Source of the DNA: Eledone cirrhosa
Lineage: Eukaryota
Direction: 5' to 3'
DNA: 64,000 bases
NCBI GenBank assembly: GCA_964016885.1
Contig: OZ024743.1
Coordinates: 279,868,001-279,932,000 of the forward strand
In this document: positions 2,820 through 60,592 of the stretch, piece by piece
Layout of the letters: every line of letters starts with the position of its first letter
Numbering within the stretch: the stretch's first letter is position 1
Position numbers and translations under genes: made by a program
Notes under the pieces: generated by a model
Databases searched by the model: none
What the model saw: only the letters and a program-made list of their open reading frames with translations
Told to the model about the DNA's origin: nothing

Positions 2820-2864
2820 GTGACGAAACATAAGTCAATTGTATGAACTCATAATCCTTTATAT

Positions 2865-2920
2865 ACCGCTATATATATTTCGATGATAGCCATTGTATGG
2901 CTATGACCTCATCAGGCAGT
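2865..2920 (-). ncRNA. Minimal type I hammerhead ribozyme (PLE-type)
   Basis: Reverse complement: ACTGC-CTGATGA-GGTCATAGCCA tacaa TGGCTATCATC-GAAA-TATATA-TA-GCGGT; intact core, palindromic stem III, stem I pairs. Confidence 0.8.
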
Positions 2921-3081
2921 CAGTAAGTTCTTAGATATGCCAGCTCTGGGCTTTTGTGTTGATCGTTTTAGAGCCTTGGGACATATGTTTCGTCACTATT
3001 ATAACTCCGGAATTTATATCTTTATTGAGTTCTCCCTATCCGCATACTGAAGTACTGGATGTTAGCAACATTTTTTGGTTA

Positions 3082-3146
<65 letters not shown>

Positions 3147-3551: not shown

Positions 3552-3616
3552 TATTTTGTCTGATGAAAGCACACCATAATTTAACTTGGTGTCCTTGAAA
3601 TATGCATAATGAAATA
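3552..3616 (+). ncRNA. Minimal type I hammerhead ribozyme (PLE-type, family J)
   Basis: TATTTTGT-CTGATGA-AAGCACACCA...TGGTGTCCTT-GAAA-TATGCA-TA-ATGAAATA; stem I pairs with two G:U. Confidence 0.8.
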
Positions 3617-3714: not shown

Positions 3715-4346
3715 TAAACGGAATAGAAAATGCTGACAAATTGTTCACAGTGAAAAATAGTTTAATTAGGAATAAATGAGAATTAGTAATTGTATTGGTT
3801 AGTATTCAGTTTTGGTTTTAAGTTTTACCGGTTGCGCATTTCTAAATGCTTTTCAAAAATAATTTTGAGATAGAGCGTCCGTGATGTTTGCTCTGATTAG
3901 TTTTGGGAATTCTACCTATTTTTATGTTAAAAAAGTGGCTCCAACGCTATTAAAATTGGTAAAGAATGTAAGCACACATAGCTAGGTAGGTAACTAATTA
4001 AAGTTTAACTAGAATTTCAAATATAGATACCTTTTAAAATGATTAATCTCCTTTGTATATATTTCTTTAAGTAAGAAATATATTTCACCAATTAATCAGT
4101 AAATCACAGTAGTCAAATCCTGGATGGTCACCAAAGGAGAAGAAAATAACTATCTACGTTTACAAAGCAAATGCAAATCTGAGACTGACTCGAACCACGT
4201 GTTGCATTTTTAAAAACACATATAGTTATTTTCTTCTCCTTTGGTGACCATCCAGGATTTGACTACTGTGATTACTGATTAATTGGTGAAATATATTTCT
4301 TACTTAAAGAAATATATACAAAGGAGATTAATCATTTTAAAAGGTA

Positions 4347-4353
<7 letters not shown>
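3711..4353. mobile_element. Family C TA-flanked fold-back element with degenerate HHR
   Basis: Inverted arms 4021-4153 / 4222-4353; HHR-like fold at 4236-4326 lacking the CUGA box. Confidence 0.65.
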
Positions 4354-9196: not shown

Positions 9197-11100
<1,904 letters not shown>

Positions 11101-11115
11101 TATATATATGTACGC

Positions 11116-11565
11116 ATATGTTGGTAGATATACTAATTCTCTGTATTTATCTCCAAATTATTTATTTGTTGAGCAAACCTGCCAAATCCGCTACTAATTC
11201 ATTGGTGTGGTAGTATGCTTCTGTCATCTTACCAACCCACTCCTTCCGACTAGCCTCAGTGTCACGTGATTGATTCTTTAGAATCTGCCATTTGACCAGA
11301 AGCAGCGAACTTTTTCAGTGCATGGAATCCAGTCCCCGCTAGCTGTTCCTTCCACCGAATTATTATTATTTTTATATGAGTCCCTAGTGTCCGCGCATTG
11401 CCTGGAGACTTAGCTGAGAATAGACTTCCTGATGACGTAAGGAATTCTCGATGGTTATATTACGTAACTATCTCTATCCCATTACAGAAACTAATTAGTT
11501 GGAGTAAAAATTTTAGTAAGTAAGTTAATTTTTAATTTTTTTTTTAATTTGTCTTATTTTACGTC

Positions 11566-11570
<5 letters not shown>
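11116..11570 (+). mobile_element. Family E HHR element, diverged partial monomer
   Basis: Homologous to the reverse complement of 20640-21080; CTGATGA at ~11429; ends ACGTCTTTCA|(TA)n. Confidence 0.75.
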
Positions 11571-11643
<73 letters not shown>

Positions 11644-13150: not shown

Positions 13151-14641
13151 GAGCAGCGATTGATTATATCATTGTTGTCTCAATGACATGAAATATCCAA
13201 TTAAATAGAAAGAAAAGATATTAACGGATAAATAGCTATCTATCTATTCATTGAAACGCTGGGTTATATTGTAGCAATGTTATCGTTAATATTGATTTAT
13301 TACTTAAGATCAAAATAACAAAACGGATATGTGAGGTTCATTTGTTTTCCAAATGAATGCATCATGTAAGTATGTAAATTAGGCTAAAATACAACAAATA
13401 ATAAACTTCTACTTCAGTTTGGGCTCGAAACAGACACGCGAACTGGATTCGGCAGTGCCACTACAATTTTAATAATATATACACGTAAAGAGAAAAGGAA
13501 AACAGTTGCGCATTCGCTTCGCTGAGTTCTTTGGTAAAATCAGATTTTAAAAACCTATTTATAGCGGTCGCTTCTGAAATGCCGTCATACAACCATTTAT
13601 TTCTGTCAAGCAAACTGAAATTAACGCCATAAATAGTTGCTTTGATAATTCCCTCTAATGTCAAAGAAGCCCAGAAACTTATAATAACGGATTCCCAAAT
13701 GTTATATATGGGAGTCTTCTGTTTATTGCTGATGCTTCGATTGTTCAAAGAAAGCGGCATTGTCTTATGATGGAGAAAACAAGGAAAATCGGCCCACATC
13801 AAACAGATAACCTTTGTTCGGATTTTTCTCCTCAAACTATCACTACTATCACTACCATTACTGCTCTCAGAACCATAATGGAATCTTAACAAGCAAATGT
13901 AAAGTTCTTTAGAAAGGGACTCGGAAAATTTATTATTGATTATAATGAAAGCTATTGATCAGTGCCAAGTGGTTTACTATTCAGATGTAGGCTATTGATC
14001 GGTGCTATGCAAGGCTTTCTATTCAAGTGTAGAATATTGCTTACTTCTGAATAAGGCTATATATATTGAGGTTTAGTGCGCTATCATTCTCTATCCCTAT
14101 TCGGACCCAGCATGTCTCAGTGCATACTAAGTTCATTTCACAATGACTCGGTCCAGGATTCGATCCCAATGCGTGGCATCTTGTGCATGTATTATTTATC
14201 ATATCCTTGTAACTGAAATTGAGGAAAAGGAAAATATGAGGACGACCGTAGGATTGATTGAATCTCTACTTCTATGGCCCTAACCTTTTGACACACTGTG
14301 TCTCGGTGTTTATATCTGGGGATAGATTTAAGGGTATATGTGTTTGGGGAATACGTAGCCACTTCAGTTACACGCAAAATCTATGAGCATGTAGTTGAGG
14401 TAATCGAACAACTAAATACACTTCATCGAAACCTTCAGTAATGGATATAAAAGTGAGTTCGTTTTGCGTTTCTGGTAATGTTCTACACCGTGGGTGATGC
14501 ATTTATTTAAACCTTCGATTGAAATATATATTTCACCATATCTTGTTTCTCACTGTCCAATTATTAACAAAAGAAGTAAATCTAGATAATTGGGTAGTAA
14601 CAATCAGGGCGAAATTGCACTTTCAATTCCTTTATATATAT

Positions 14642-14822
14642 ATAGGAACAAGTATGACCCCGACGGCAGAGCTCAAGCCGTTTCGACGGCTGTTTATGGC
14701 GTCGAAACGGCTTGAGCTCTGCCGTCGGGGTCATACTTTTTCCTATTACCCACTCTACTACCCTAAGTATTGAGTACTTTGGTGCGTTATGGTCCATCTA
14801 GTTTCTTACCATAATTCCTTCG

Positions 14823-14826
<4 letters not shown>
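14642..14826 (+). mobile_element. Family F fold-back element with HHR 3' half
   Basis: 46-bp arms 14642-14687 / 14701-14746; GAAA-CGGC...GCCG-TC; TA at both ends; homologs at 24088-24215 and 58768-58930. Confidence 0.75.
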
Positions 14827-14863
<37 letters not shown>

Positions 14864-14865
14864 TA

Positions 14866-15035
14866 TTCCACCCCGCGCGTCCCTTTAGTCTATCTTATTT
14901 GTCATTCTTCTTCGGATGAAGGACTAGCGCCCGAAACGTTAAGACCCTCTTCGTGCCATTTCAGGCGTTAACCTAATATATTCCTACCATCTACTGTACC
15001 GATTGTGTTGTTAATTTCGTTTACCTTTTACACAT
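14866..15035 (+). mobile_element. PLE 3'-terminal fragment with degenerate minimal HHR
   Basis: CGGATGAAGGACTAGCGCCCGAAACGTTAAGA; similar motif at ~48764-48793; TA-flanked. Confidence 0.55.
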
Positions 15036-15046
15036 ATATATATATA

Positions 15047-15802
15047 GTGAGTTAGAAACTCAGAGTAGTCTCTTACAATTAAATAGCTCTAATAAAAAAG
15101 CTTATCCGAACCGTACAATATAATTGAATAAACAAGAGAGATGAGCACTAATATAAACATACATGTGTTCGAATCGTAAGGACCAAGTTTGATAGGGTGA
15201 AAAAATACTAACTACAGCAATATGGTTTGTCAGACTTAATATTTAAATATTAAATTAAGAAAGATAACAAACCCATATTGGGCAATCGCCTGGTAACAAC
15301 AAGACAGTTTTGGAGACTGTTTCGCAACATCTTATTAAGTAAAGTCCACTCTTTTCTCTGCTCCTCAGTAGTTGTTGAGAAATTAGTGATCCTTCCACTT
15401 CTAAAAATATTATAGACTGAATTGCATGCGATAAGAATTATCACACGTGTCTTCGGAACCCAGCATGTCTCGAATTCCATGCCGCTAAAAATAGCAGCCT
15501 GGCTAACAGGACATTACAATTAGCTCTACATGATGGAGCCAACAAATATATAGTGAGTTAGAAACTCAGAGTAGTCTCTTACAATTAAATAGCTCTAAGA
15601 AAAAATCTTTTCCGAGCCGTACAATATAATTGAATAAACAAGAGAGATGATCACTAATATAAACATACATGTGTTCGAATCGTAAGGACCAAGTTTGCTA
15701 GGATGAAAAAAAAAATTCAGTCTATAATATTTTTAGAAGTGGAAGGATCACTAATTTCTCAACAACTACTGAGGAGCAGAGAAAAGAGTGGACTTTACTT
15801 AA

Positions 15803-15804
<2 letters not shown>
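15047..15804 (-). mobile_element. Family A retrozyme-like element: 1.3 monomers (506-nt period) plus inverted segment
   Basis: 15047-15205 repeated at 15553-15712; 15715-15804 is the reverse complement of 15333-15422; TA at both ends. Confidence 0.9.
15295..15376 (-). ncRNA. Type I hammerhead ribozyme with canonical core (family A)
   Basis: AACAACTA-CTGAGGA-GCA...TGC-GAAA; stem III ACAGT/ACTGT; GUC triplet; then TTGTTGTT. Confidence 0.85.
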
Positions 15805-19792: not shown

Positions 19793-20074
19793 TACATTTA
19801 GCGAGAATCGCATTTCGGCGAGGAGAAATTAGGGAAACTCAAATTCTGAATTGTGTTGGCGAGCGCTCAATGGATATGAGTATACCAGAGCTTTAAACAT
19901 AAGTTAGAAAGACCATACAAAGCTGAGACGATGGTTAAGAAGCCATTAACTACCTAAGCCAAAAAAGCGAGCAAGCTAAGCGGGTGAAACAAAATAAGAT
20001 ATGATTGAAATATTTACCCGGACCATCGGGTATGATGGTATAATCCGATAGAGGGTTTCTGCGACACCTAAATC

Positions 20075-20267
20075 AATAATTGTTTCTACTATTGGCACAA
20101 GGCCAGCAAATACCCAGTATATTACTGGTACTTTATGTTATCGACGCTGTAAGGATGAAAGGCAAAGTTAACCTCGGCGGGATTTGAACTCAGAATGGCA
20201 AGGGCCGTAACTCTATGCGTCAAAGCATGGCGTCCGCCCCTCTACCGATACTGCCAATTCACCGCCC
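20075..20267 (-). mobile_element. tRNA-derived SINE (octopus-type)
   Basis: B-box GAGTTCAAATCCC, core GCCGAGGTTAACTTTGCCTTTCATCC and tail AGTAGAAACAATTATTA on the minus strand. Confidence 0.8.
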
Positions 20268-20291: not shown

Positions 20292-20341
<50 letters not shown>

Positions 20342-20348
<7 letters not shown>

Positions 20349-20454
20349 GTAGATATACTAATTCTTTATGTTATATATATATATATATATAACATAAAGA
20401 ATTAGTATATCTACCAACATATATATATATAACATAAAGAATTAGTATATCTAC

Positions 20455-20490
<36 letters not shown>

Positions 20491-21305
20491 CTCTTTATGT
20501 TATATATATATATATATAACATAAAGAATTAGTATATCTACCAACATATATATACAGATGCATACCTATGCTAGCAAATATATAGGTTTTGTCTTAGTAA
20601 CTTTGGGATTCAATGCAAGGGGATGCAGAACAATTATATGAGAGACGTAAAATAAGAAAATTATAAAAATTAACTTACTTACTAAAATTTCACTCCAACT
20701 AATTAGTTTCTGAAAGGGAATAAACATAGTTTCCGAATGGAACAACATGGAGAAAATCCTTTCGTCATCAGGAGTCTATTCTCAGCTAAGTTCCCAGGCA
20801 ATGCGTGGACACAGGGAAGTTATACAAAAATAATTCAGTGGATAGAAAAAAGCAAGCGAGGACTAAATTCCAGGACATTGAAAAAATCACTGCCTACTTG
20901 GTCGGTGGCAAATTCAAAAGAATCAATCACGTGACATTGAGGTTAATCAGTGAGGAGTGGGGTGCTAATAAGACAGTAGCATGACTATTACTATGAACCA
21001 TAGTAGTAGTTTTGGCAAATTTTTGCTCAACAAAATAATTTGGAGTTAATTATAAAGAATTAGTATATCTACCAACATATATATACAGATGCATACCTAT
21101 GCTAGCAAACATATAGGTTTTGTCTTAGTAACTTTGTGGTTCAATTCAAATGGGATGCAGTAAAATTATATGAAAGACGTAAAATAAGAAAATTATAAAA
21201 ATTAACTTACATTCGGAAACCATGTTTATTCCCTTTCAGAAACTAATTAGTTGGAGTGAAATTTTAGTAAGTAAGTTAATTTTTATAATCTTCTTATTTT
21301 ACGTC

Positions 21306-21310
<5 letters not shown>
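20342..21310 (-). mobile_element. Family E retrozyme-like element: 1.3 monomers (531-nt period), inverted segment and terminal stutters
   Basis: 20521-20680 repeated at 21052-21210; 21211-21310 inverted, ending ACGTCTTTCA|(TA)n. Confidence 0.85.
20718..20781 (-). ncRNA. Minimal type I hammerhead ribozyme (family E)
   Basis: GAATA gactc CTGATGA CGAA...TTCG GAAA CTATG TT TATTC. Confidence 0.65.
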
Positions 21311-21342
<32 letters not shown>

Positions 21343-21562
21343 TACATATATATATATATACACATACATATACAAACCTATGGTTTTTCATCTTCAATAT
21401 TCTTAATGTTCACAAATCCATGAACATTGCTTCATAGAAACTGGAGGACCTGAAAAGTTGAAAAGATACATTATGATCCTAATAAGCATAGTCACACTAC
21501 ATATGACTATGGCTACTCCTGTATTTACCAACAAATGTTGTTCCTGTATATATGAATATGTA

Positions 21563-25394: not shown

Positions 25395-26008
25395 CGTATC
25401 TGTTGTGACATTCTCAGTTCAAATTCCAGCAAAGTCAACTTTATTTTTCACCTCTCGGGGTCGAAAAAAATAAAGTACCAGTCAGAAAATGTTACCCAAT
25501 TTAATCGACTTTCCCGCGCTCTCCAAGCTGTTGACCATGTGGCTAAATCGGAAACTATTATTATTATTATTATTGCTAGGGTGGTGGATTGGCAGCATCG
25601 GTAGAGAGTCAGACACCTTGTTTCATGGCATAGAGTTACGGCCCTTTACGTTCTTACTTCAAATCATACCGAGGTTAGCTTTGCCTATCATCGTTACGGG
25701 GTCGATAAATTAAGTACCAGTAACGTACTGGTATCGATTCAATCGACTTTCCTCACCCCTTCAAAATGCTGGCCTTGTGCCTAAAGTAGAAAACAATTAT
25801 TATTATTGCTAGCGCAGTGGATTGGCAATATCAGTTGAGCGTCAGACACCATACTTTCCAGCATAGAGTTATGGCCCTTTGCGTTCGGAGTTCAAATCGC
25901 GCCGAGGTTAACTTTGCCTTTCATCCTTAAGGGGTCAATAAAATAAAGTACCAGCAATGCGCTAGGATAATTTCTGGCCTTGATCCAAAAAGTAGAAACA
26001 ATTATTAT
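25395..26008 (+). mobile_element. Three head-to-tail tRNA-derived SINE copies
   Basis: Core repeated at ~25395-25570, 25578-25805 and 25810-26008, each ending in an (ATT)n tail. Confidence 0.8.
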
Positions 26009-26399
26009 TGCTGTGGCTGTTGTTTATTTTATTACTATCTATTATTAGCATCAGCAGTGTTGTTATATGCATGGTGTCATGTCAGTTTAGTGCTATATAT
26101 TTCCTTCAGTACATGCACTGACGTAGTTCCTGGTGTTTGTACTAAATCTGGGGAGTTTATTACTTGTTTATTACCCGTAAGTTAACTTTCTCTTACATAC
26201 CATTACTACTTTATTTTGTGTTTACACTGTTTCATTGTTCCTATTTATGTGTACGTCTTTTTCATCTCGAAGAAAATGTTACCCAACGTATTCAACTATT
26301 ATTTATAGTTATCTACATTTCTGCATTCCTACAGCCCCACCACCAACCCTAGCTAACATATCTCAATATGTCCAATGTTGGCAGAGCAGTCAATTGCAT

Positions 26400-30629: not shown

Positions 30630-30944
30630 TATCACTTACACATATATACACATAGGACATATATTAAGACTTCTGGAATGTTTGTCTTTCTTAAGAAATA
30701 AATCTTTGTCACCGCATTGTTTCATCTTCGTTTTGGAGGTCTTCAGTATTTTTGTATATTTGATTTTCTTTCAAATTTAATTTCAATTTATTTTCTTGTC
30801 TTACATTCTCCGAGAAAGAAATAAAACATTTGATAATCAACTAGCTAGACGTTTTACACATGCACCTATTACACACATGCCAACATGCGAACATATACGT
30901 CTTTCACTGTTTAAAATTGTATGTGTGTGCGTGTGTATATATAT

Positions 30945-31293
30945 ATATCACATAAGAAAGGGAGAATCAGTGTTGCGACGAATAACATTTATTAGACATA
31001 TTACAATCGTTCCTCTGGCGACCAGCTCGAGGCACGATCGATGCAATGATCGAAGCTGACTCTGAAATCGCAAGATCCTCAGATACGTCTCGATTCTACG
31101 AAGCAGTGTTTCCAAATTTGGAAACTCTGCCTCAAACTGGTCGCCAGAGAAACGATTGTAATATGTCTAATAAATGTTATTCGTCGCAACATTGATTCTC
31201 CGTTTCTTATGTGATATTATACTCTGCTCTGTAAGATCCACGAGTGCTCAAACGGCCTGCCGCTTACGGGGGCTTTAAGCATCCCACAGCAAT

Positions 31294-31328: not shown

Positions 31329-31934
31329 ATGTGTGGTGTGCATGTGTTGGGGGTGAGTGTTTGTGAGTGTATTGCCGTCTCTTTCACTGAGTTATAAATT
31401 TGTTGCTGTTATCGTTGTCATTGTTGTAGTTGTTGTTGCTGCTGTTGTCGTTGTTTGATTTGAGTAGACAATCGTATCGCGAAGGGTTGATAGAAGGCAA
31501 TATGAATCATTTGGCACGCTGATATTTTCATAGAACAAAACCTGGTATCGGTTGTACGTCTTTATATGTATCTATACTTGTGAAACATATATATATTTCT
31601 TACATGTATTTGTAATACACTGCCCGATGGTATAATCAAAATTTGGCCGAAACGGACTGCTTTTTTTCTAACACCACGCTACCTGCCAATGCCTAACTTA
31701 CTACCCTCATGTTGATCGCCAATCACGTGATATTTATTCCATTTGAAATTTTCAATGATCGCGAACAAGGAAGAATGTTTCTGTCTTGAATTTTGTTTAT
31801 TGACCGAGAAAGTATCCCGATGATTTGAGATTTCTCGCAATACTCAAAGTATTGTTATTTTCTCAATGAAACTGCAGTAGGAGGGACATTAAAGTAAGTG
31901 AAGGATTTTTTCTTGTTTGCTTTTCCCAGATATG

Positions 31935-32075
<141 letters not shown>

Positions 32076-33194: not shown

Positions 33195-33680
33195 CTGATA
33201 GAATCGGTAGAGCGTCAGACACCATGCTTTGCAGCATACAGTTATGCCCCTTTACGTTCTGAGTTCAAATCCCGCCAACGTTAGCTTTGCCTTTCATCCT
33301 TACGGAGTCGATAAAATAAAGCACCAGCAATGCACTGCGGCCGATTTAATCGACTTTGCCCCCCAAAAAAGAAAATTGCTGGCTTTGTGCCTATATGAAA
33401 AACCATTATTATTATTATTGTTGTTGTTGTTGCTGTTGTTGATGTTGTTGTTATAAAGCGGTGGATTAGCAACATCTGTAGAGCGCCAGACAACACGCTT
33501 TGTAGCATATAGCTCCGGCTGTTTACGTTTTGACTCCAAATATCCGCGGGGTAGCTTTTTCTTTCATCCTTACGATGTCGTTAAAACTAAGTATTATTAA
33601 CGCACTGGGCTCGATTTACTCAACTTTCCTCTTTCTTTCAAATTGCTTGCCTTGTTCTAAGAGTAGAAACAATTATTATA
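33195..33680 (+). mobile_element. Two tandem tRNA-derived SINE copies
   Basis: SINE core at 33195-33415 and 33457-33680. Confidence 0.8.
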
Positions 33681-35249: not shown

Positions 35250-38590
<3,341 letters not shown>

Positions 38591-43112: not shown

Positions 43113-43300
43113 AAGGGCGGGCGATTAGCAGTGTCGGTAGAGGGCTGACACCGTGCTTTGCAGAAAAGAGTTATAGTCTGAGTTCAAATCCCGCCGAGGT
43201 TAACTTTGCCTTTCATCCTTACGGGGCCGATAAAATAAAGCATCAGTAATAGAGTGGGATAATTTCCGGCCTTGTGCAAAAAGTAGAAACAATTATTATT
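43113..43300 (+). mobile_element. tRNA-derived SINE (octopus-type), full length
   Basis: A-box-like TAGCAGTGTCGGT, B-box GAGTTCAAATCCC, (ATT)n tail. Confidence 0.85.
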
Positions 43301-43302
43301 AC

Positions 43303-43343
<41 letters not shown>

Positions 43344-45916: not shown

Positions 45917-47251
45917 TATATATATGTGTGTTTGTTTGTATGTGTGTGTGTGTGCATGTGAGTGTGGGTGTGTACGCACGCATTTCTGACCCGTTTGTCA
46001 ATTTCTTGTTCACTTAAATGTTAAATAATAATTTCATAGGAACTCAGATGTACATTTAACATATATGATTCATGTCCAGCATTTCCGTTTAAGCCATACA
46101 TGTCCTGCTTGCTTTATTCATGATGTTCTTGACTTTTGTAAATAATCTGTTCCCCAGCTCTGGAAATACAAAGACAATGTAGTATTCTTATTCATATTTG
46201 ATGTAAGATTGTTTTGGGTGTTTATCATACATTTACTCGTGAGTTGCAAGAAGAAAGACAAACCTTGTGTCAAATCGAAGACAGCGTTGTTTGTTGTCTA
46301 AATTGTTTTCTGTAGCCTTAGTTTGCTGTTCAAATAGGATGTCATAATTGATGTTTGGAGCACAAACATTGTTATTGTGGTTTTTGTCAGAAATATTCTG
46401 TCGATTGTGTTTGTAATATATTCGGTCGAGACACGCAAACAACCATCGCATATTTTGAATCTCTTTATTATTTGAATGTCCCGTGATATAATGCACAGTT
46501 TTCATAATAACCGAAATAATGATAAGTGATATGGTTTATAAATTTTTACATTATCTTAATGTTATTTCTTACCGCTTTAGAGGTTTCGTTTCTTTGTATT
46601 TGTGATATTTAACATGCATCCTTTCTTCGGTTTTGTATTTGCTTTTCGAGTAACATTTTTATGTATGTAGTAAATAGTCTTGGTTCCAATTTATCTTGGT
46701 CCCGGACAAAGGTTTCATATTAAATACGAAGCAGTGCCGATTTAAATCGCATATTTGACTTTCTAACCTGTCTGGTTCTATAGGTACCCGATGTAAATCT
46801 AATATGATCTACAAAGGCCATTGAATGTGGTCTTTCGCTTCTGTCAAGACAGATTGAAAATCGATTCCTTCATCAGACATGTTAACATAGCAATATTATA
46901 TGGGTTATTTCTCATAAGCATTTCATATTTGTCCACTGACTGGATTAATATACGCCTTAAGTGTGTGTATATATTAAGTTATCGCACATATGTGTAGTAC
47001 ATTTACACAGGGACAAAAAAATGTAAGCGATATAAATATATACACATAGATATATATGCGTATATATCTTGGAGGGGAGAGACAGAGATAGAGAGTGCCT
47101 ATACACACACACAAACACGCGCACGCGCACGCGCACGCGCACGCGCACGCACACACACACACACACACTAACACATATATATAGCGAGAGAGAGAGTAAG
47201 AGAGGGAGAGAAAGAGAGAGAATAAGAGAGAGAGAGAGAAGTAGAGAGAGA

Positions 47252-47537
47252 CATTTATTTATGCTTAGAAGATGTAGAAATTCTCGTTTAGAAAATCGGG
47301 TAAAATACCTCTATGGTCGGGTAAAAATGGCCAACAGCAACTACAAAGTATCAAACATATATATTTATATAAACTTAAATATGAGTTACCGCGGCAAATG
47401 CGTTGAAATGCTTAAAACATAGAGTAGTACAGTGTTGGACACTTTCTAGTGGCTGTTGGCATTTTTACCCGACCATAGGCGTATATTACCCGATTTTCTA
47501 AACGAGAATTTCTACATTTTCTAAGCATAAATAAATG
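47252..47537. repeat. ~105-bp inverted repeat extended outward by (GA)n/(TC)n
   Basis: Arms ~47252-47358 / 47433-47537. Confidence 0.85.
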
Positions 47538-47542
47538 TATTG

Positions 47543-47603
<61 letters not shown>

Positions 47604-48170
47604 TATCTCTCTCTCTCTCGCTCCCTCTCTCTCTCGCTCCCGCTCTCTCTCTCTCTCCCTCTCTCTCTTTTTCTTTATATATATATATAGAGAGAGAGAG
47701 GGGGGATAGCTAGATAGATAAATAGAGAGATAGATATGCGCATTTCTACATGTTTGTAGCATATACACGCATATAAACATAAATTGCTTCTAGCCTGTAT
47801 ATATTGGCTCAGTGTGAGTGACAAAAAGTGTACATAATATAATAAAACATAGTATGAGATCGATATGGAACAGTAATTTATTATAAATGCAACAAAAAAA
47901 TACCAAAGTAAGAAAATAAAAATAAACTTCCTGTGTATATTGTTGCGTAATTACGCATACTCTTGTGTGGAGCGTGTGAGTTTCCCCTCACCATATTCAT
48001 ATGTGTGTGCATGGATGACTGAGTGGCTATTCTTTCTGTTTCAGTAAACAAAATGGCAACAAAATTCAAATAGCTGGACACGTGTAATGTTGTACAACTT
48101 CCTGACTCGTACACTTCTTTTACACACCCGGATCTTTATATTGATCTTAATTAACCAAGTAGCAGCCTGG

Positions 48171-51830: not shown

Positions 51831-52273
51831 AAACCAATTTTTAACTTAGTACTCTGTATGTGTGTGCGTGTATGTGTGTGTATATATGTGTGTGTATATG
51901 TGTGTGTGTGCATGCATGTGTGTGTACGTGGGTGTCTGTTGTTGCTAATTTTAAAACGTTTTTAACGTTTGTTCGTTGTTATATATCATTCATATAAATG
52001 TTTATTATTGTTCACTACTGCAAGGAAGGGAACTTCAGGTAGGACTTTAGGTGTAACCGTGGGACTTCACGTTTAAATAAATGCCAGTTAATACATCCCG
52101 CAGACGAAAACTTAAGTACACCGAAGGATATTTCAGGTTTAATACATATATAGTTACTCTCTAGCAAATAAACCTAATATAACTTCCCACGTTTGTCAGC
52201 AAGAACACACAAGTAAAAGCAAAGTAAGGAATATATCTTGTTTGGTCTTATCCTATCTCGTTAGTCTCCATAA

Positions 52274-52385
52274 ATCCCGCCGAGGTTAACTTTGCCTTTC
52301 ATCCTTATGGGGTCGATAAAATAAAGTACCAGTAATGCACTGAGTAATTGCTGGCCTTGTCCCAAAAGTAGAAACAATTAATAAT
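52274..52385 (+). mobile_element. 5'-truncated tRNA-derived SINE
   Basis: AATCCCGCCGAGGTTAACTTTGCCTTTCATCC...AGTAGAAACAATT. Confidence 0.8.
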
Positions 52386-53124
52386 ATATCTTTCTACTGA
52401 CATATAATAATTTTCATAATGAGTGTGATACCACTGAAGAAGTTATCTGCATATTAGGATTTAAGATATAATTACACTGCGGTGACTGACTTACTGCTGA
52501 TCTACAGATGGAATTGAAACCAGCAATGCATTGAACGATCAATGTTACAGTGAGGTCCTGCTAGTCTAGGTAAGACAATTCTAGCCAAGGGTATCTACTC
52601 ACAAATTGGATGGGGGGTGAGTGGGGGAGTGAATTCCATGACCATGGTAGTTTATAGTAACGTAGAAAGCGTTATTAAAATTGACACATGGATAAGGTAA
52701 TAGACAAATTGGAAGCCCTATAGCTGATTGCTCTCGAGTAACCTTCCGGCCATTATTTTCTCGTATAAAAGATTGTGTAAAAAGGAGACAGCGACCAAGT
52801 ATCATCATTTGGGGTTTTGTTTCTTATTTACCTCTCATATTCAACTACGATCGGTTCCGTTCATTGTTTATTTTCGTAATTGGTTACAAGTTCGTATTTC
52901 GTGGTTTCAAATATATTGCAGCTGTTTCGGAAATCTATCTCTTCAGCAAATTTCATTTGCCTAACTTTCAAAAATAAAACACGTTTTGTATAATATATTG
53001 CGAATAGACTAGATACTTATTAACATAGATATTTCCACTTCATACGGTAGAGAAACTCGTAAGTTCATTCACTTCAGAAAAGTATTTTCCCGGCATAACA
53101 TTCATGAAGTTTGATACAATAGAC

Positions 53125-56449: not shown

Positions 56450-58130
56450 TCTGGTACAGAAATGGCCTTTGGCGACAAGAATCGATGACTAGTTGCAATG
56501 TACTTTCAAGTGCTACCTCAGGCCTCAGGCGGATTCAGAAAATATGCCACATTTATGTCAGATTTTTATACCCAGCGCACCAACGTATTAGCCTCATTAC
56601 GTAGCTTCTCTTCTGACTATTTAATCCAGCTTTGCTGAGGTAGTCTCTCCCACACTCTTTCCATATCAGCTCAACTTGTCCTTCTTCACATCATTTTTAA
56701 TCTTTCATAATTTCTTTGGGACATTTCAGAGTGTACTTTCTCTACCTATACAGCTTTCCTCCACAGTGTTTGATCATTAGCAGCTGGTTCTCAGTCCCCA
56801 ACAGAAATACTATCTTTCATCAGAAATGATTTGACACAGTCTTTGAAACTCATTATAGGTTTATGAGCTTGGCGTTTTCCATCTCTCGTCATAAAGGAGT
56901 TGTTTGGGTAACGTTCAGTCCTTCATTCTAACGATATGTTCCACCCATCGGCGATGGTATTGCAAGATAATCGACTCGTTACTATGACAGTGATTTCTTT
57001 CAAGGACTTCCACGTCATACACATGCATATTTCATCGTAGACCCAAGATTCGACGAAGGCACTGCTGATGAAACCGCCCCAGCTCTTTTAGATGCTTACA
57101 GTGAATAACCTACATCTCACACGTGTTCACTAGGGATGACAATACACAAGTCGCGTAGACCATACTCCCTTTTCCATATTCCCGACATCATCACTACTAG
57201 CTTTCCTGATTCCGGATGATATATCATTGTCAAGGGTGTACAGTACACTTAAAGTACTGCCAAGATACACAAACTTGTCCACCACCTGGAGCTTCGAACC
57301 ATGCATTCTTATATCTAGTTCTACATATGGTGTTCCTAGTGCTGGCTGGTACAGAGCCACAGTCTTCCTCAAGATGATTGTTAAACCAAACTCGGAACAC
57401 GCACTGCATATCTTCATGCGCGTGGGTAAACCGATCGCAGTCATCTGTGTACAGACATTCCCTCAACAGTGAGTACATGACCTTCGTATTGGTACCAAAG
57501 CATCTCATGTTGAAAATCTATCAAGATGTACGAAACCCTGTCAACGGTTTTTAAAGGCCATTACAAATGCCACTTCAAAGAACAATGAAAACAGTTTCGG
57601 TGCTGTTATGTACCTTGTTGGACCCCATTCCTTAGAACCATACGTTCCAACATCCATCCATCAATATTTACCCAGGTGTTCATGTTATCATGAAATTGAC
57701 GAGGGATTGCCAAGAATTTGTCCGGAATCAATCTGTCCAAGTATTTTCCAAAGAGATACTCTATTAATTATGTCAAATGCATTTGTAAAGTCAATAAACA
57801 CTTGAAGCACAGCTACACTTTGTTCCAAATACTTTTCATGAAGCTGCCTAGCAGGAAATATCATGTCCACTGTGCCACTGACCTGGAATTTTGAAAGAAC
57901 AGTGTTAGCAATGAGTAGCATAAGTCTGTTAAGCATAACCCTGAACAGAAACTTTCCAGCCACAGACAGCAGCACTACTCCTCTATAGTTACTAGTCATT
58001 GTTGTCGATTCATCATCCAATAGGATTCGGATGTTCCAGCGACGTATATTTATAATTGTAGTTGTATATTTTGTGACAGCCTTGGGCTGTGGTGTCACAG
58101 GAAACCTTCCGGGCCGGGCCTTTTCACTAC
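56450..58130 (-). mobile_element. Decayed, internally deleted RTE (BovB-like) LINE
   Basis: Minus strand WNIRILLD, SNYRGVVLLSVAGK, TVDMIF.ARQLHEK, FIDFTNAFD, LYTDDC, FGLTI, KFVYLGSTLS. Confidence 0.85.
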
Positions 58131-58257
58131 TTTTCTGATAAAGGATTAATGTACGAAACGTAACGACATGCTTCCTACAATATCAAGTGTTAAACTAATA
58201 CATTTCATCATTGTACCGTGCTGATAGCTTTGTTGTTTCTTATATATAATATATATA

Positions 58258-58754
<497 letters not shown>

Positions 58755-58767
58755 TATACGTATATAT

Positions 58768-58930
58768 AAAGAAGGAAGAGTGGTAAGGAACCAGATGGAC
58801 CATAACGCACCAGAGTACTCAATACTTAGGGTAGTAGAGTGGGTAATAGGAAAATGTTTGACCTCGACGGCAGAAATAGCCGTCCAAACGGCTTGAGTTC
58901 TGCCGTCGGGGTGAAACATTTTCCTATTAC
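58768..58930. mobile_element. Family F fold-back copy
   Basis: Reverse-complement homolog of 14701-14826 plus an inverted arm; TA on both sides. Confidence 0.75.

Positions 58931-59037
<107 letters not shown>

Positions 59038-59288: not shown

Positions 59289-60592
<1,304 letters not shown>

Follow-up and report, generated by a model that had tools for sequence, protein, structure and literature searches.

A 531-nt non-coding repeat with a predicted hammerhead ribozyme, probably copied into (TA)n microsatellites by a Penelope-like enzyme

Architecture of the repeat locus

The 64-kb stretch of Eledone cirrhosa DNA analyzed here (the window) is AT-rich, with many (CA)n, (CT)n and (TA)n tracts. 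Two of the (TA)n tracts (20302–20520 and 21310–21372) flank E1, a copy of repeat family E. Its main segment (20521–21210, minus strand) is 690 nt long and contains 1.30 units of a 531-nt monomer. The RNA sense is that of the minus strand, on which the segment is truncated at the 5′ end (21210) and has its 3′ end at 20521. The 531-nt period claimed in the original prediction is well defined, with 78 of 79 positions matching at an offset of 531 (next best offset, 38). Self-BLAST also recovered the predicted partial tandem of 1.3 units by aligning 20521–20678 with 21052–21210 at 94.3% identity over 159 columns. The upstream partial unit (21052–21210, minus strand) is thus a direct repeat resembling a pseudo-LTR. 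The overlapping units have nine differences in the 159 columns, eight of them inside 38 nt (P = 0.001 versus random placement).

The inverted segment described at this locus was likewise confirmed: self-BLAST aligned 21207/21210–21314 with 20742–20635 in inverted orientation (96.3% identity over 108 nt). The segment is a 5′-truncated piece of 105 nt (21210–21314, plus strand) that carries the 3′ half of the ribozyme, ends at a position that we call site 1 and has three differences over its length when the alignment starts at 21210. Read on the ribozyme strand, the locus consists of (TA)n, the outward-pointing 105-nt piece, 690 nt down to 20521 and (TA)n. On either side a 3′ end forms the outer boundary and abuts (TA)n, and the two 5′ ends meet at 21207–21210 over one exact base or three of four shared bases. 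The apex of the inversion is not on a TA run.

The terminal ~34 nt of the main segment (20521–20554, minus strand) are tail-like and extend from an internal 9-nt TA run to the main 3′ end. Three extra copies of this stretch, which the first reading had overlooked, lie within the left (TA)n tract, one inverted (20336–20369) and two direct (20394–20427 and 20434–20467). They agree at all 25 of the 25 bases compared, carry the GT of the junction, which is absent from the read-through unit, and are therefore probably local or artefactual; we read them as later DNA-level slippage and fold-back or as an assembly artefact. A 22-bp RNA hairpin predicted at 20533–20582 (minus strand) ends 12 nt before the main 3′ end. 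Its stability is confined to the sense strand (z −3.7 versus 0.0), and it has no stable equivalent fold in the diverged copy E3 (z 0.0). The whole monomer is 34% GC and folds better in the sense (z −4.3) than in the antisense (z −2.2) orientation. We also identified a dispersed SINE-like repeat of ~200 nt, 70–89% identical between copies (20069–20267, 25456–26012, 33200–33627, 43115–43303 and 52272–52388), one copy of which adjoins the E1 tract on its left.

The longest stop-to-stop frame lying wholly inside the E unit has 75 codons' worth of sequence (75 aa). The E reading frames had no Pfam match and no detectable coding remnant, and two of them had no protein relatives, in a search that for one frame covered proteins of 41–132 aa. 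Nor did the 64-kb window contain an autonomous partner of E. We searched 190 of the 216 filtered window frames of at least 55 aa, together with seven short E frames; the 26 omitted frames were of low complexity or inside an RTE-like element. None of the frames searched had a GIY-YIG or PLE-type match, and the same set gave two RVT_1 matches, of which one was significant and the other weak, plus three weak unrelated ones. The RTE-like element is a broken LINE at 35800–38242 with endonuclease-like and reverse transcriptase (RT) frames split by stops. Of the best 120 listed among 428 matches to its RT frame (37133–37852), the named ones with the highest identity are two Octopus sinensis proteins (90% over 52–59% of the query). 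A second RT fragment is located at 57691–58182 (minus strand). E shows neither of the usual marks of a tRNA-derived SINE or a LINE-mobilized element, a tRNA-like head and a LINE-like 3′ tail. E has no tail of its own, and no tRNA genes were detected in the window, in a search that a decayed head would escape.

Dispersed copies of the family

Two further copies were assigned to family E. E2 (11110–11574, plus strand; 11116–11574 by self-BLAST) is a single 5′-truncated copy, 77.9% identical to E1, that has the tail, body and a complete ribozyme fold (11424–11505) and ends at site 1 in a (TA)35 tract. It is 13 nt longer than the corresponding E1 span. E3 (31535–31937, plus strand) is a diverged copy (~60% identity) with the spacer, tail region, body and ribozyme, and was detected as two weak colinear matches at 31.7–31.9 kb when the window was searched with an E profile. 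Its upstream part aligns with E1 at ~60% over 286 columns (score 80 versus a shuffle maximum of 58, n = 300), and the ribozyme and downstream part scored 53 against a shuffle maximum of 42 (n = 500). The comparison of E3 with E2 alone was not significant (43 versus a shuffle maximum of 49). Between common anchors, E3 is 81 nt shorter than E1.

These copies uphold the view of E as a mobilized family and not a local duplication, with sequences at 78% and ~60% identity crossing the tandem junctions. E2 covers the tail-to-body and ribozyme-to-site-1 adjacencies, and E3 covers the spacer-to-tail one. The two copies span these adjacencies, which makes the circular arrangement characteristic of the family apart from the ~45 nt after site 1, a stretch present in no other copy; the period of 531 nt was measured at one locus only. 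The E insertions are in microsatellite or AT-rich DNA and lack a clear target-site duplication. An inverted 5′-truncated copy next to the 5′ end is present at one of the three E loci.

A predicted type I hammerhead fold on the distal GAAAC

The original prediction placed the hammerhead at 20718–20781, and this fold did not withstand analysis: it has no helix I beside C3 and fails a type I descriptor. It paired CUGAUGA (20771–20765) with the first GAAAC (20733–20729), a motif missing from both other copies, and when forced it lies 15.5 kcal/mol above the minimum-energy fold. Over E1, E2 and E3, 24 of 32 cells were paired and one pair had changed on both sides, a result equaled or exceeded by 338 of 500 shuffles. 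By contrast, the type I descriptor, which gave four matches in the window versus 0.17 per shuffled window, matched a complete E2 fold built on the next, distal GAAAC. The equivalent fold in E1 (20692–20775, minus strand) pairs CUGAUGA with the GAAAC at 20710–20706, and is not among the four matches because its helix I lacks one base present in E2. Its 6-bp helix II closes a 54-nt domain with an inner hairpin, helix III is palindromic, and the predicted cut falls between 20697 and 20696. For this distal fold, 38 of 41 cells were paired over the three copies, with both partners altered in four pairs; 5 of 500 shuffles reached this level. The count involves three related sequences, two of which were used to derive the structure, and it is support, not proof, for the distal fold. 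We regard this fold as the supported prediction for the type I hammerhead of family E.

Energetically, the active fold lies 5.7 kcal/mol (E1, with a one-base slip) and 7.1 kcal/mol (E2) above the minimum; the cost is 4.6–9.8 kcal/mol in family A, a second hammerhead family in the window. Around the distal GAAAC, a 21-nt block is shared without a difference by E1, E2 and the inverted piece of E1, and it had no exact match in bacterial or archaeal genomes. Rfam models identified no family at gathering score across the 64-kb window; at E ≤ 10 over E1 and E2 there was no hammerhead model among the matches, which were chance ones of miRNA or snoRNA type. In E3, whose core is CCGAUGA (31817–31823), the distal fold is kept, the sequence of helix II has changed and helix I has decayed to three of five pairs. 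A covariance model of the distal fold built from E1 and E2 scored E3 at 22.1 bits (E 0.04), and one with the originally proposed fold scored it at 19.9 bits (E 0.08), which is little separation.

The distal-fold model alone also found a match at 58508–58601 (E 0.63, not significant by itself). This match is in E4 (58396–58674, minus strand), a short element between two (TA)n tracts that has the E ribozyme design (core 58587–58581). Local scores of E4 against the E copies were 39–49 and were exceeded by 0–10 of 200 shuffles, leaving its membership of family E uncertain. In the 5′ part of E4, a 14-nt stretch (58643–58657) equals the E1 sequence at the predicted cut, which may be chance. Both E3 and E4 (31.5–31.9 and 58.4–58.7 kb) share the ribozyme design of E1 and had been overlooked in the first reading.

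All four elements have one extra base after A9, a 5–6-bp helix II closing 44–54 nt and one extra base before GAAA. Furthermore, helix III is a perfect palindrome in four of four elements, in three different sequences of 8–10 nt. A descriptor of this E-type design gave five matches in the window (one of them in another element, F) versus two in 200 shuffled windows; as it was designed after E1–E4 were known, the result measures specificity and is not an independent discovery. The E1 locus has one complete ribozyme, with none in the tandem part and a 3′ half in the inverted piece, and no E copy is flawless.

Several of these features are those of hammerheads from Penelope-like elements (PLEs), in which an extra base follows A9, helix II is long and helix III is a palindrome of a kind that suits dimers (PMC4209133). 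E resembles such variants in all three, with its 6-bp helix II, and in a 4–5-bp helix I. The G10.1–C11.1 pair of PLE-type hammerheads is kept in E1 and E2 and is replaced by U–A in E3 and C–G in E4. Unlike the variants described, E has a helix II that closes a 44–54-nt domain with an inner hairpin, and the extra base before GAAA. The palindromic helix III predicts, on structural grounds, that the E hammerhead would cleave as a dimer, as in other PLE-type hammerheads.

Insertion ends and (TA)n targets

In its read-through form, site 1 is an ATATA run (20635–20639, minus strand) 57 nt after the predicted cut. The earlier claim that the inverted piece and E2 (ending at 11570–11574) share a junction was borne out, as both end at ACGTCTTTC/ATATA, where the five bases ATATA belong equally to element and (TA)n tract. 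Site 1 is also the end used by E3. The distance from cut to TA is 57 nt in the read-through unit, the inverted piece and E3, and 69 nt in E2, which has 12 extra bases in this stretch, mostly a T run. The main 3′ end of E1 (site 2) lies 176 nt from the predicted cut, ~119 nt from site 1 and at the end of the 34-nt terminal block; the end of E4 lies at +121.

Alternating TA runs of at least 5 nt occur only four times in the monomer, and the site 1 junction is on one of them. Thus, the match between E1 and E2 alone could be one-in-four luck if priming relied on microhomology. That E3, ~40% diverged, ends equally far from the cut favors a preferred start site. As far as sequence can tell, this points to a defined start of reverse transcription and against local duplication. 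Element ends were within 5 nt of a (TA)≥5 tract in 15 of 18 cases against a background of 1.8%, a count that is partly circular because some ends of families D and F were set by eye beside tracts. For nine ends in families E, A and B, of which the E1-inverted and E2 ends are the same site, a read-through comparison copy was available. Six of these nine, all scored by eye, overlap the tract by 3–7 nt, which is expected at 9–12% of random positions. The remaining three have a 1–2-nt insertion (two ends) or a 1-nt overlap.

Family A and the question of a common enzyme

Family A occupies four loci (59329–60457, or A59; 15040–15804, or A15; 9198–9956; and 541–734) whose main 3′ ends are at a homologous position. 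Like E, it has a partial tandem and an inverted piece in (TA)n, a type I hammerhead and an upstream CACGTG motif. Its hammerhead has a long helix III and a 36–42-nt helix II domain. Its periods are 506 and 554 nt, the latter including an internal 37-nt duplication; in A59 this duplicates the 3′ strand of helix III.

The claim that E has no obvious similarity to A agrees with our comparisons. The best local score was 30 against a shuffle maximum of 31, and profile searches in both directions returned nothing at E ≤ 10. A register-anchored comparison was not significant either (sum 291.5 versus 246 ± 22 for shuffles, maximum 318.5), and in its background test E1 was exceeded by 9 and E2 by 208 of 1070 windows. 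A 15–18-nt match between E1 and A59 just after the main end site, in the top 0.2% of window pairs, was rejected because it is absent in the other five of six pairs. No significant alignment connects the families, which may be independent, yet both have a long-loop-II hammerhead and an upstream CACGTG.

In families E, A and B, the CACGTG palindrome precedes the ribozyme by 48–166 nt, at 20928–20933 (E1), 11263 (E2), 31724 (E3), 59997, 15444, 10992 and 10228. Six of its 15 occurrences in the window are inside the 5.2 kb of hammerhead families defined at that time (0.35 expected), for a motif chosen after the fact, and a seventh is in E3. The palindrome is possibly an internal promoter element. 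The family A locus at 9198–9956 has CATGTG, the CpG-decay form.

A shared size constraint, also proposed originally, found no support. Three periods only are measurable (506, 531 and 554 nt), and the 81-nt deficit of E3 implies a unit of ~450 nt, giving a range of about 450–554 nt in the window; published animal monomers span 51–972 bp (bioRxiv 10.64898/2026.07.22.740005). The accompanying proposal of a common mobilizing enzyme stands for a class of enzyme, since the layout is a PLE signature (PMC8557442), and not for one shared enzyme. A single protein acting on E and A is not established because the cut-to-end distances differ (57 and 176 nt in E versus 263–267 nt in A) and so does helix III, a long, monomer-competent hairpin in A versus a palindrome in E.

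A probable non-autonomous Penelope-like element

E combines a regular period, a partial tandem, an inverted piece, outer 3′ ends at (TA)n and ragged 5′ ends with the lack of a detectable coding remnant, and its three dispersed copies have a covarying ribozyme fold. This is the known PLE layout, and E likely adds a family to a known class of elements. PLE insertions are described as partial tandems with an adjacent inverted 5′-truncated copy and a 30–40-bp tail, a layout presented as the signature of all endonuclease-bearing PLE clades (PMC8557442). According to the same source, canonical and Hydra clades carry hammerheads, (TA)n tracts serve as targets, there are non-autonomous partners and what the hammerhead does is unclear. 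E shares with the endonuclease-bearing PLEs (Penelope/Poseidon, Neptune, Nematis and Hydra) and their non-autonomous derivatives, such as MRC1 (Chlamydomonas) and Chlamys-N4, a pseudo-LTR formed by the partial tandem, an inverted 5′-truncated copy beside it and a hammerhead in the repeat; its terminal block of ~34 nt is tail-like, but the two end sites in use are ~119 nt apart. It differs from them in having no ORF and a unit of only 531 nt. The (TA)n targets of E are those of the Hydra and Naiad clades (PMC8557442). Naiads are an unlikely source, since they have no hammerheads and only remnants in cephalopods. In Octopus vulgaris, 190 Penelope-like families make up 6.8% of the genome and 31 have been recently active (PMC13282606); the supplement of that study does not mention ribozymes.

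Taken together, E is probably a non-coding repeat copied into (TA)n microsatellites by the RT and GIY-YIG endonuclease of an autonomous PLE, and comparison with known systems makes a PLE-class enzyme the likely agent. On AT-rich DNA, a purified PLE protein nicked each of the two strands and extended both, and it reverse-transcribed uncut RNA from fixed internal sites downstream of its hammerhead (PMC11167929). E is similar to PAc, a Poseidon element of Anolis carolinensis, in its internal start sites, a stem-loop near the start, the use of both strands and an uncut template. By contrast, the start sites of PAc are 30–40 apart, versus ~119 nt between the E end sites, and PAc primed without homology, whereas six of nine checkable E, A and B ends overlap (TA)n. 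This overlap, the lack of an autonomous partner in the window, the single E period, the flaws in every ribozyme copy, the extra base before GAAA and the end of E4 at +121 instead of +57 speak against a PLE.

We infer the enzyme, the cleavage and the following order of events. Transcription of a tandem donor locus would yield an RNA longer than one unit, and the PLE protein would nick both strands of a (TA)n tract. Downstream of the ribozyme, at a preferred internal site (+57 or +176), each nick would then prime reverse transcription, probably aided by 3–7 nt of TA pairing, with site 1 used for the inverted piece, E2 and E3 and site 2 for the main segment. One cDNA would extend 690 nt, passing through a complete, uncut ribozyme and on into the upstream unit; the second would extend 105 nt across the predicted cut site, implying a template uncut there. 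Joining of the two cDNA 3′ ends head to head over 1–4 nt of microhomology at 21207–21210 would produce the inversion. Slippage and fold-back of the DNA at the self-complementary (TA)n may have added the extra 34-nt terminal copies later.

The partial tandem could also come from a rolling-circle retrozyme, in which the ribozyme would cut multimers into single units, a ligase of the host would seal these into 531-nt circles, and the enzyme of a PLE or LINE would copy more than one round (PMC7229834; PMC4209133). Such a cycle would account for copying across a re-ligated cut site. E shares with metazoan non-LTR retrozymes a non-coding unit of low GC content (<45%), one type I hammerhead per unit, a self-paired monomer (PMC7229834) and a size inside their 51–972-bp range, and retrozymes have themselves been linked to PLE pseudo-LTRs (PMC7229834; bioRxiv 10.64898/2026.07.22.740005). 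We consider this origin unlikely. One circle should give identical overlaps, and the clustering of eight of nine differences is easier to reconcile with a tandem donor whose units differed slightly, although later gene conversion could mimic it. Furthermore, no locus has two complete ribozymes: with 1.3 units and one complete ribozyme, E1 lacks the pair that identifies an active retrozyme locus, and E2 and E3 are each under one unit. E also exceeds the 170–400 nt of the circles demonstrated so far, and its inverted pieces and (TA)n targeting are not among the retrozyme features that we found described.

Twin priming makes 5′ inversions in L1, and a microsatellite-targeting LINE (R4/Dong, Tx1 or RTE type) could have mobilized E and inverted it in this way. 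The gap between the main and inverted pieces of A15 fits twin priming, these LINE groups were recently active in O. vulgaris (PMC13282606), and the window has an RTE-like copy at about 35.8–38.2 kb. A LINE is nonetheless quite improbable, for E shows no similarity to the RTE-like element by self-BLAST or profile search, has no poly(A) or simple-repeat tail of its own, ends at positions internal to the read-through unit and forms a partial tandem. In addition, the inverted and main pieces of A59 overlap by 159 nt, which we take to be more than one RNA primed twice easily gives. Duplication and fold-back of one linear repeat at (TA)n, which is self-complementary, or its misassembly, would explain the three identical terminal copies with their junction GT. 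As an account of the whole locus it is very improbable: E2 and E3 cross the cyclic adjacencies (except the ~45 nt after site 1), the apex is not a TA run, the pieces differ by 3–6%, and family A has the same layout at 15 and 59 kb. The inverted arms, the insertion at TA and the many palindromic inserts in the window would suit a non-autonomous DNA transposon (MITE/foldback or Helitron-type) with an incidental hammerhead, an explanation that we find barely credible when arm lengths and inner junctions vary by locus, E2 and E3 have no inverted arm, the ends are not fixed on both sides (those of E1 are at two different sites) and the fold of the ribozyme covaries across ~40% divergence.

Within the PLE interpretation, the main segments stop short of the upstream predicted cut by 17 nt (E1), 26 nt (A59) and 97 nt (A15), and none goes beyond it, a regularity of three loci noticed after the fact. 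This would fit a 5′ end that is set by ribozyme cleavage or by a transcription start close by. It is conceivable, if rather doubtful, that the upstream hammerhead cuts, in family E as a dimer, and sets the template's 5′ end while the internal one stays uncut, as the inverted pieces of E1 and A59, which cross the cut site, would need, and that reverse transcription starts a fixed distance downstream with TA pairing. Insert length would then be at most one period plus the cut-to-end distance, accounting for the 1.3 units. The role of PLE hammerheads would also become countable from genomes, with E as a variant that has a structured 44–54-nt helix II domain.

Other hammerhead-bearing elements in the window

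At least four lineages with hammerheads (E, A, B and F) lie in (TA)n within this one 64-kb window, and the host genome should yield thousands of junctions between hammerhead repeats and (TA)n. The distributions of 5′ and 3′ ends relative to the predicted cut could address the role of the hammerhead in endonuclease-bearing PLEs and how their tandem and inverted insertions form. We found no published description of cephalopod hammerhead repeats, and a consensus may already exist in TE libraries.

Family B (10055–11106) has 435-nt inverted arms flanking a microsatellite, with a compact type I hammerhead in each arm (core at 11040) and one defect per arm. Its CACGTG is 48 nt upstream of the hammerhead and is followed by a TATA-like run, and the family joins E2 via a 5-unit TA tract. 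Element F (2821–3085), between (TA)n tracts, has a complete type I hammerhead (2864–2921, minus strand) with a palindromic helix III, and an inverted piece that starts near 2984. To the right of another (TA)n tract, a minimal PLE-type hammerhead-like motif (14909–14943; GAAACGUU) has the core CGGAUGA, with one change. A weak type I descriptor match in AT-rich sequence (3554–3614) may be chance, with 0.17 expected per window. Near-perfect palindromic inserts also lie in or beside (TA)n at 1756–2473, 4021–4353, 14633–14830, 30940–31221, 47181–47606 and 58750–58935. No hammerhead was found in these six, which are probably head-to-head insertions of other families.
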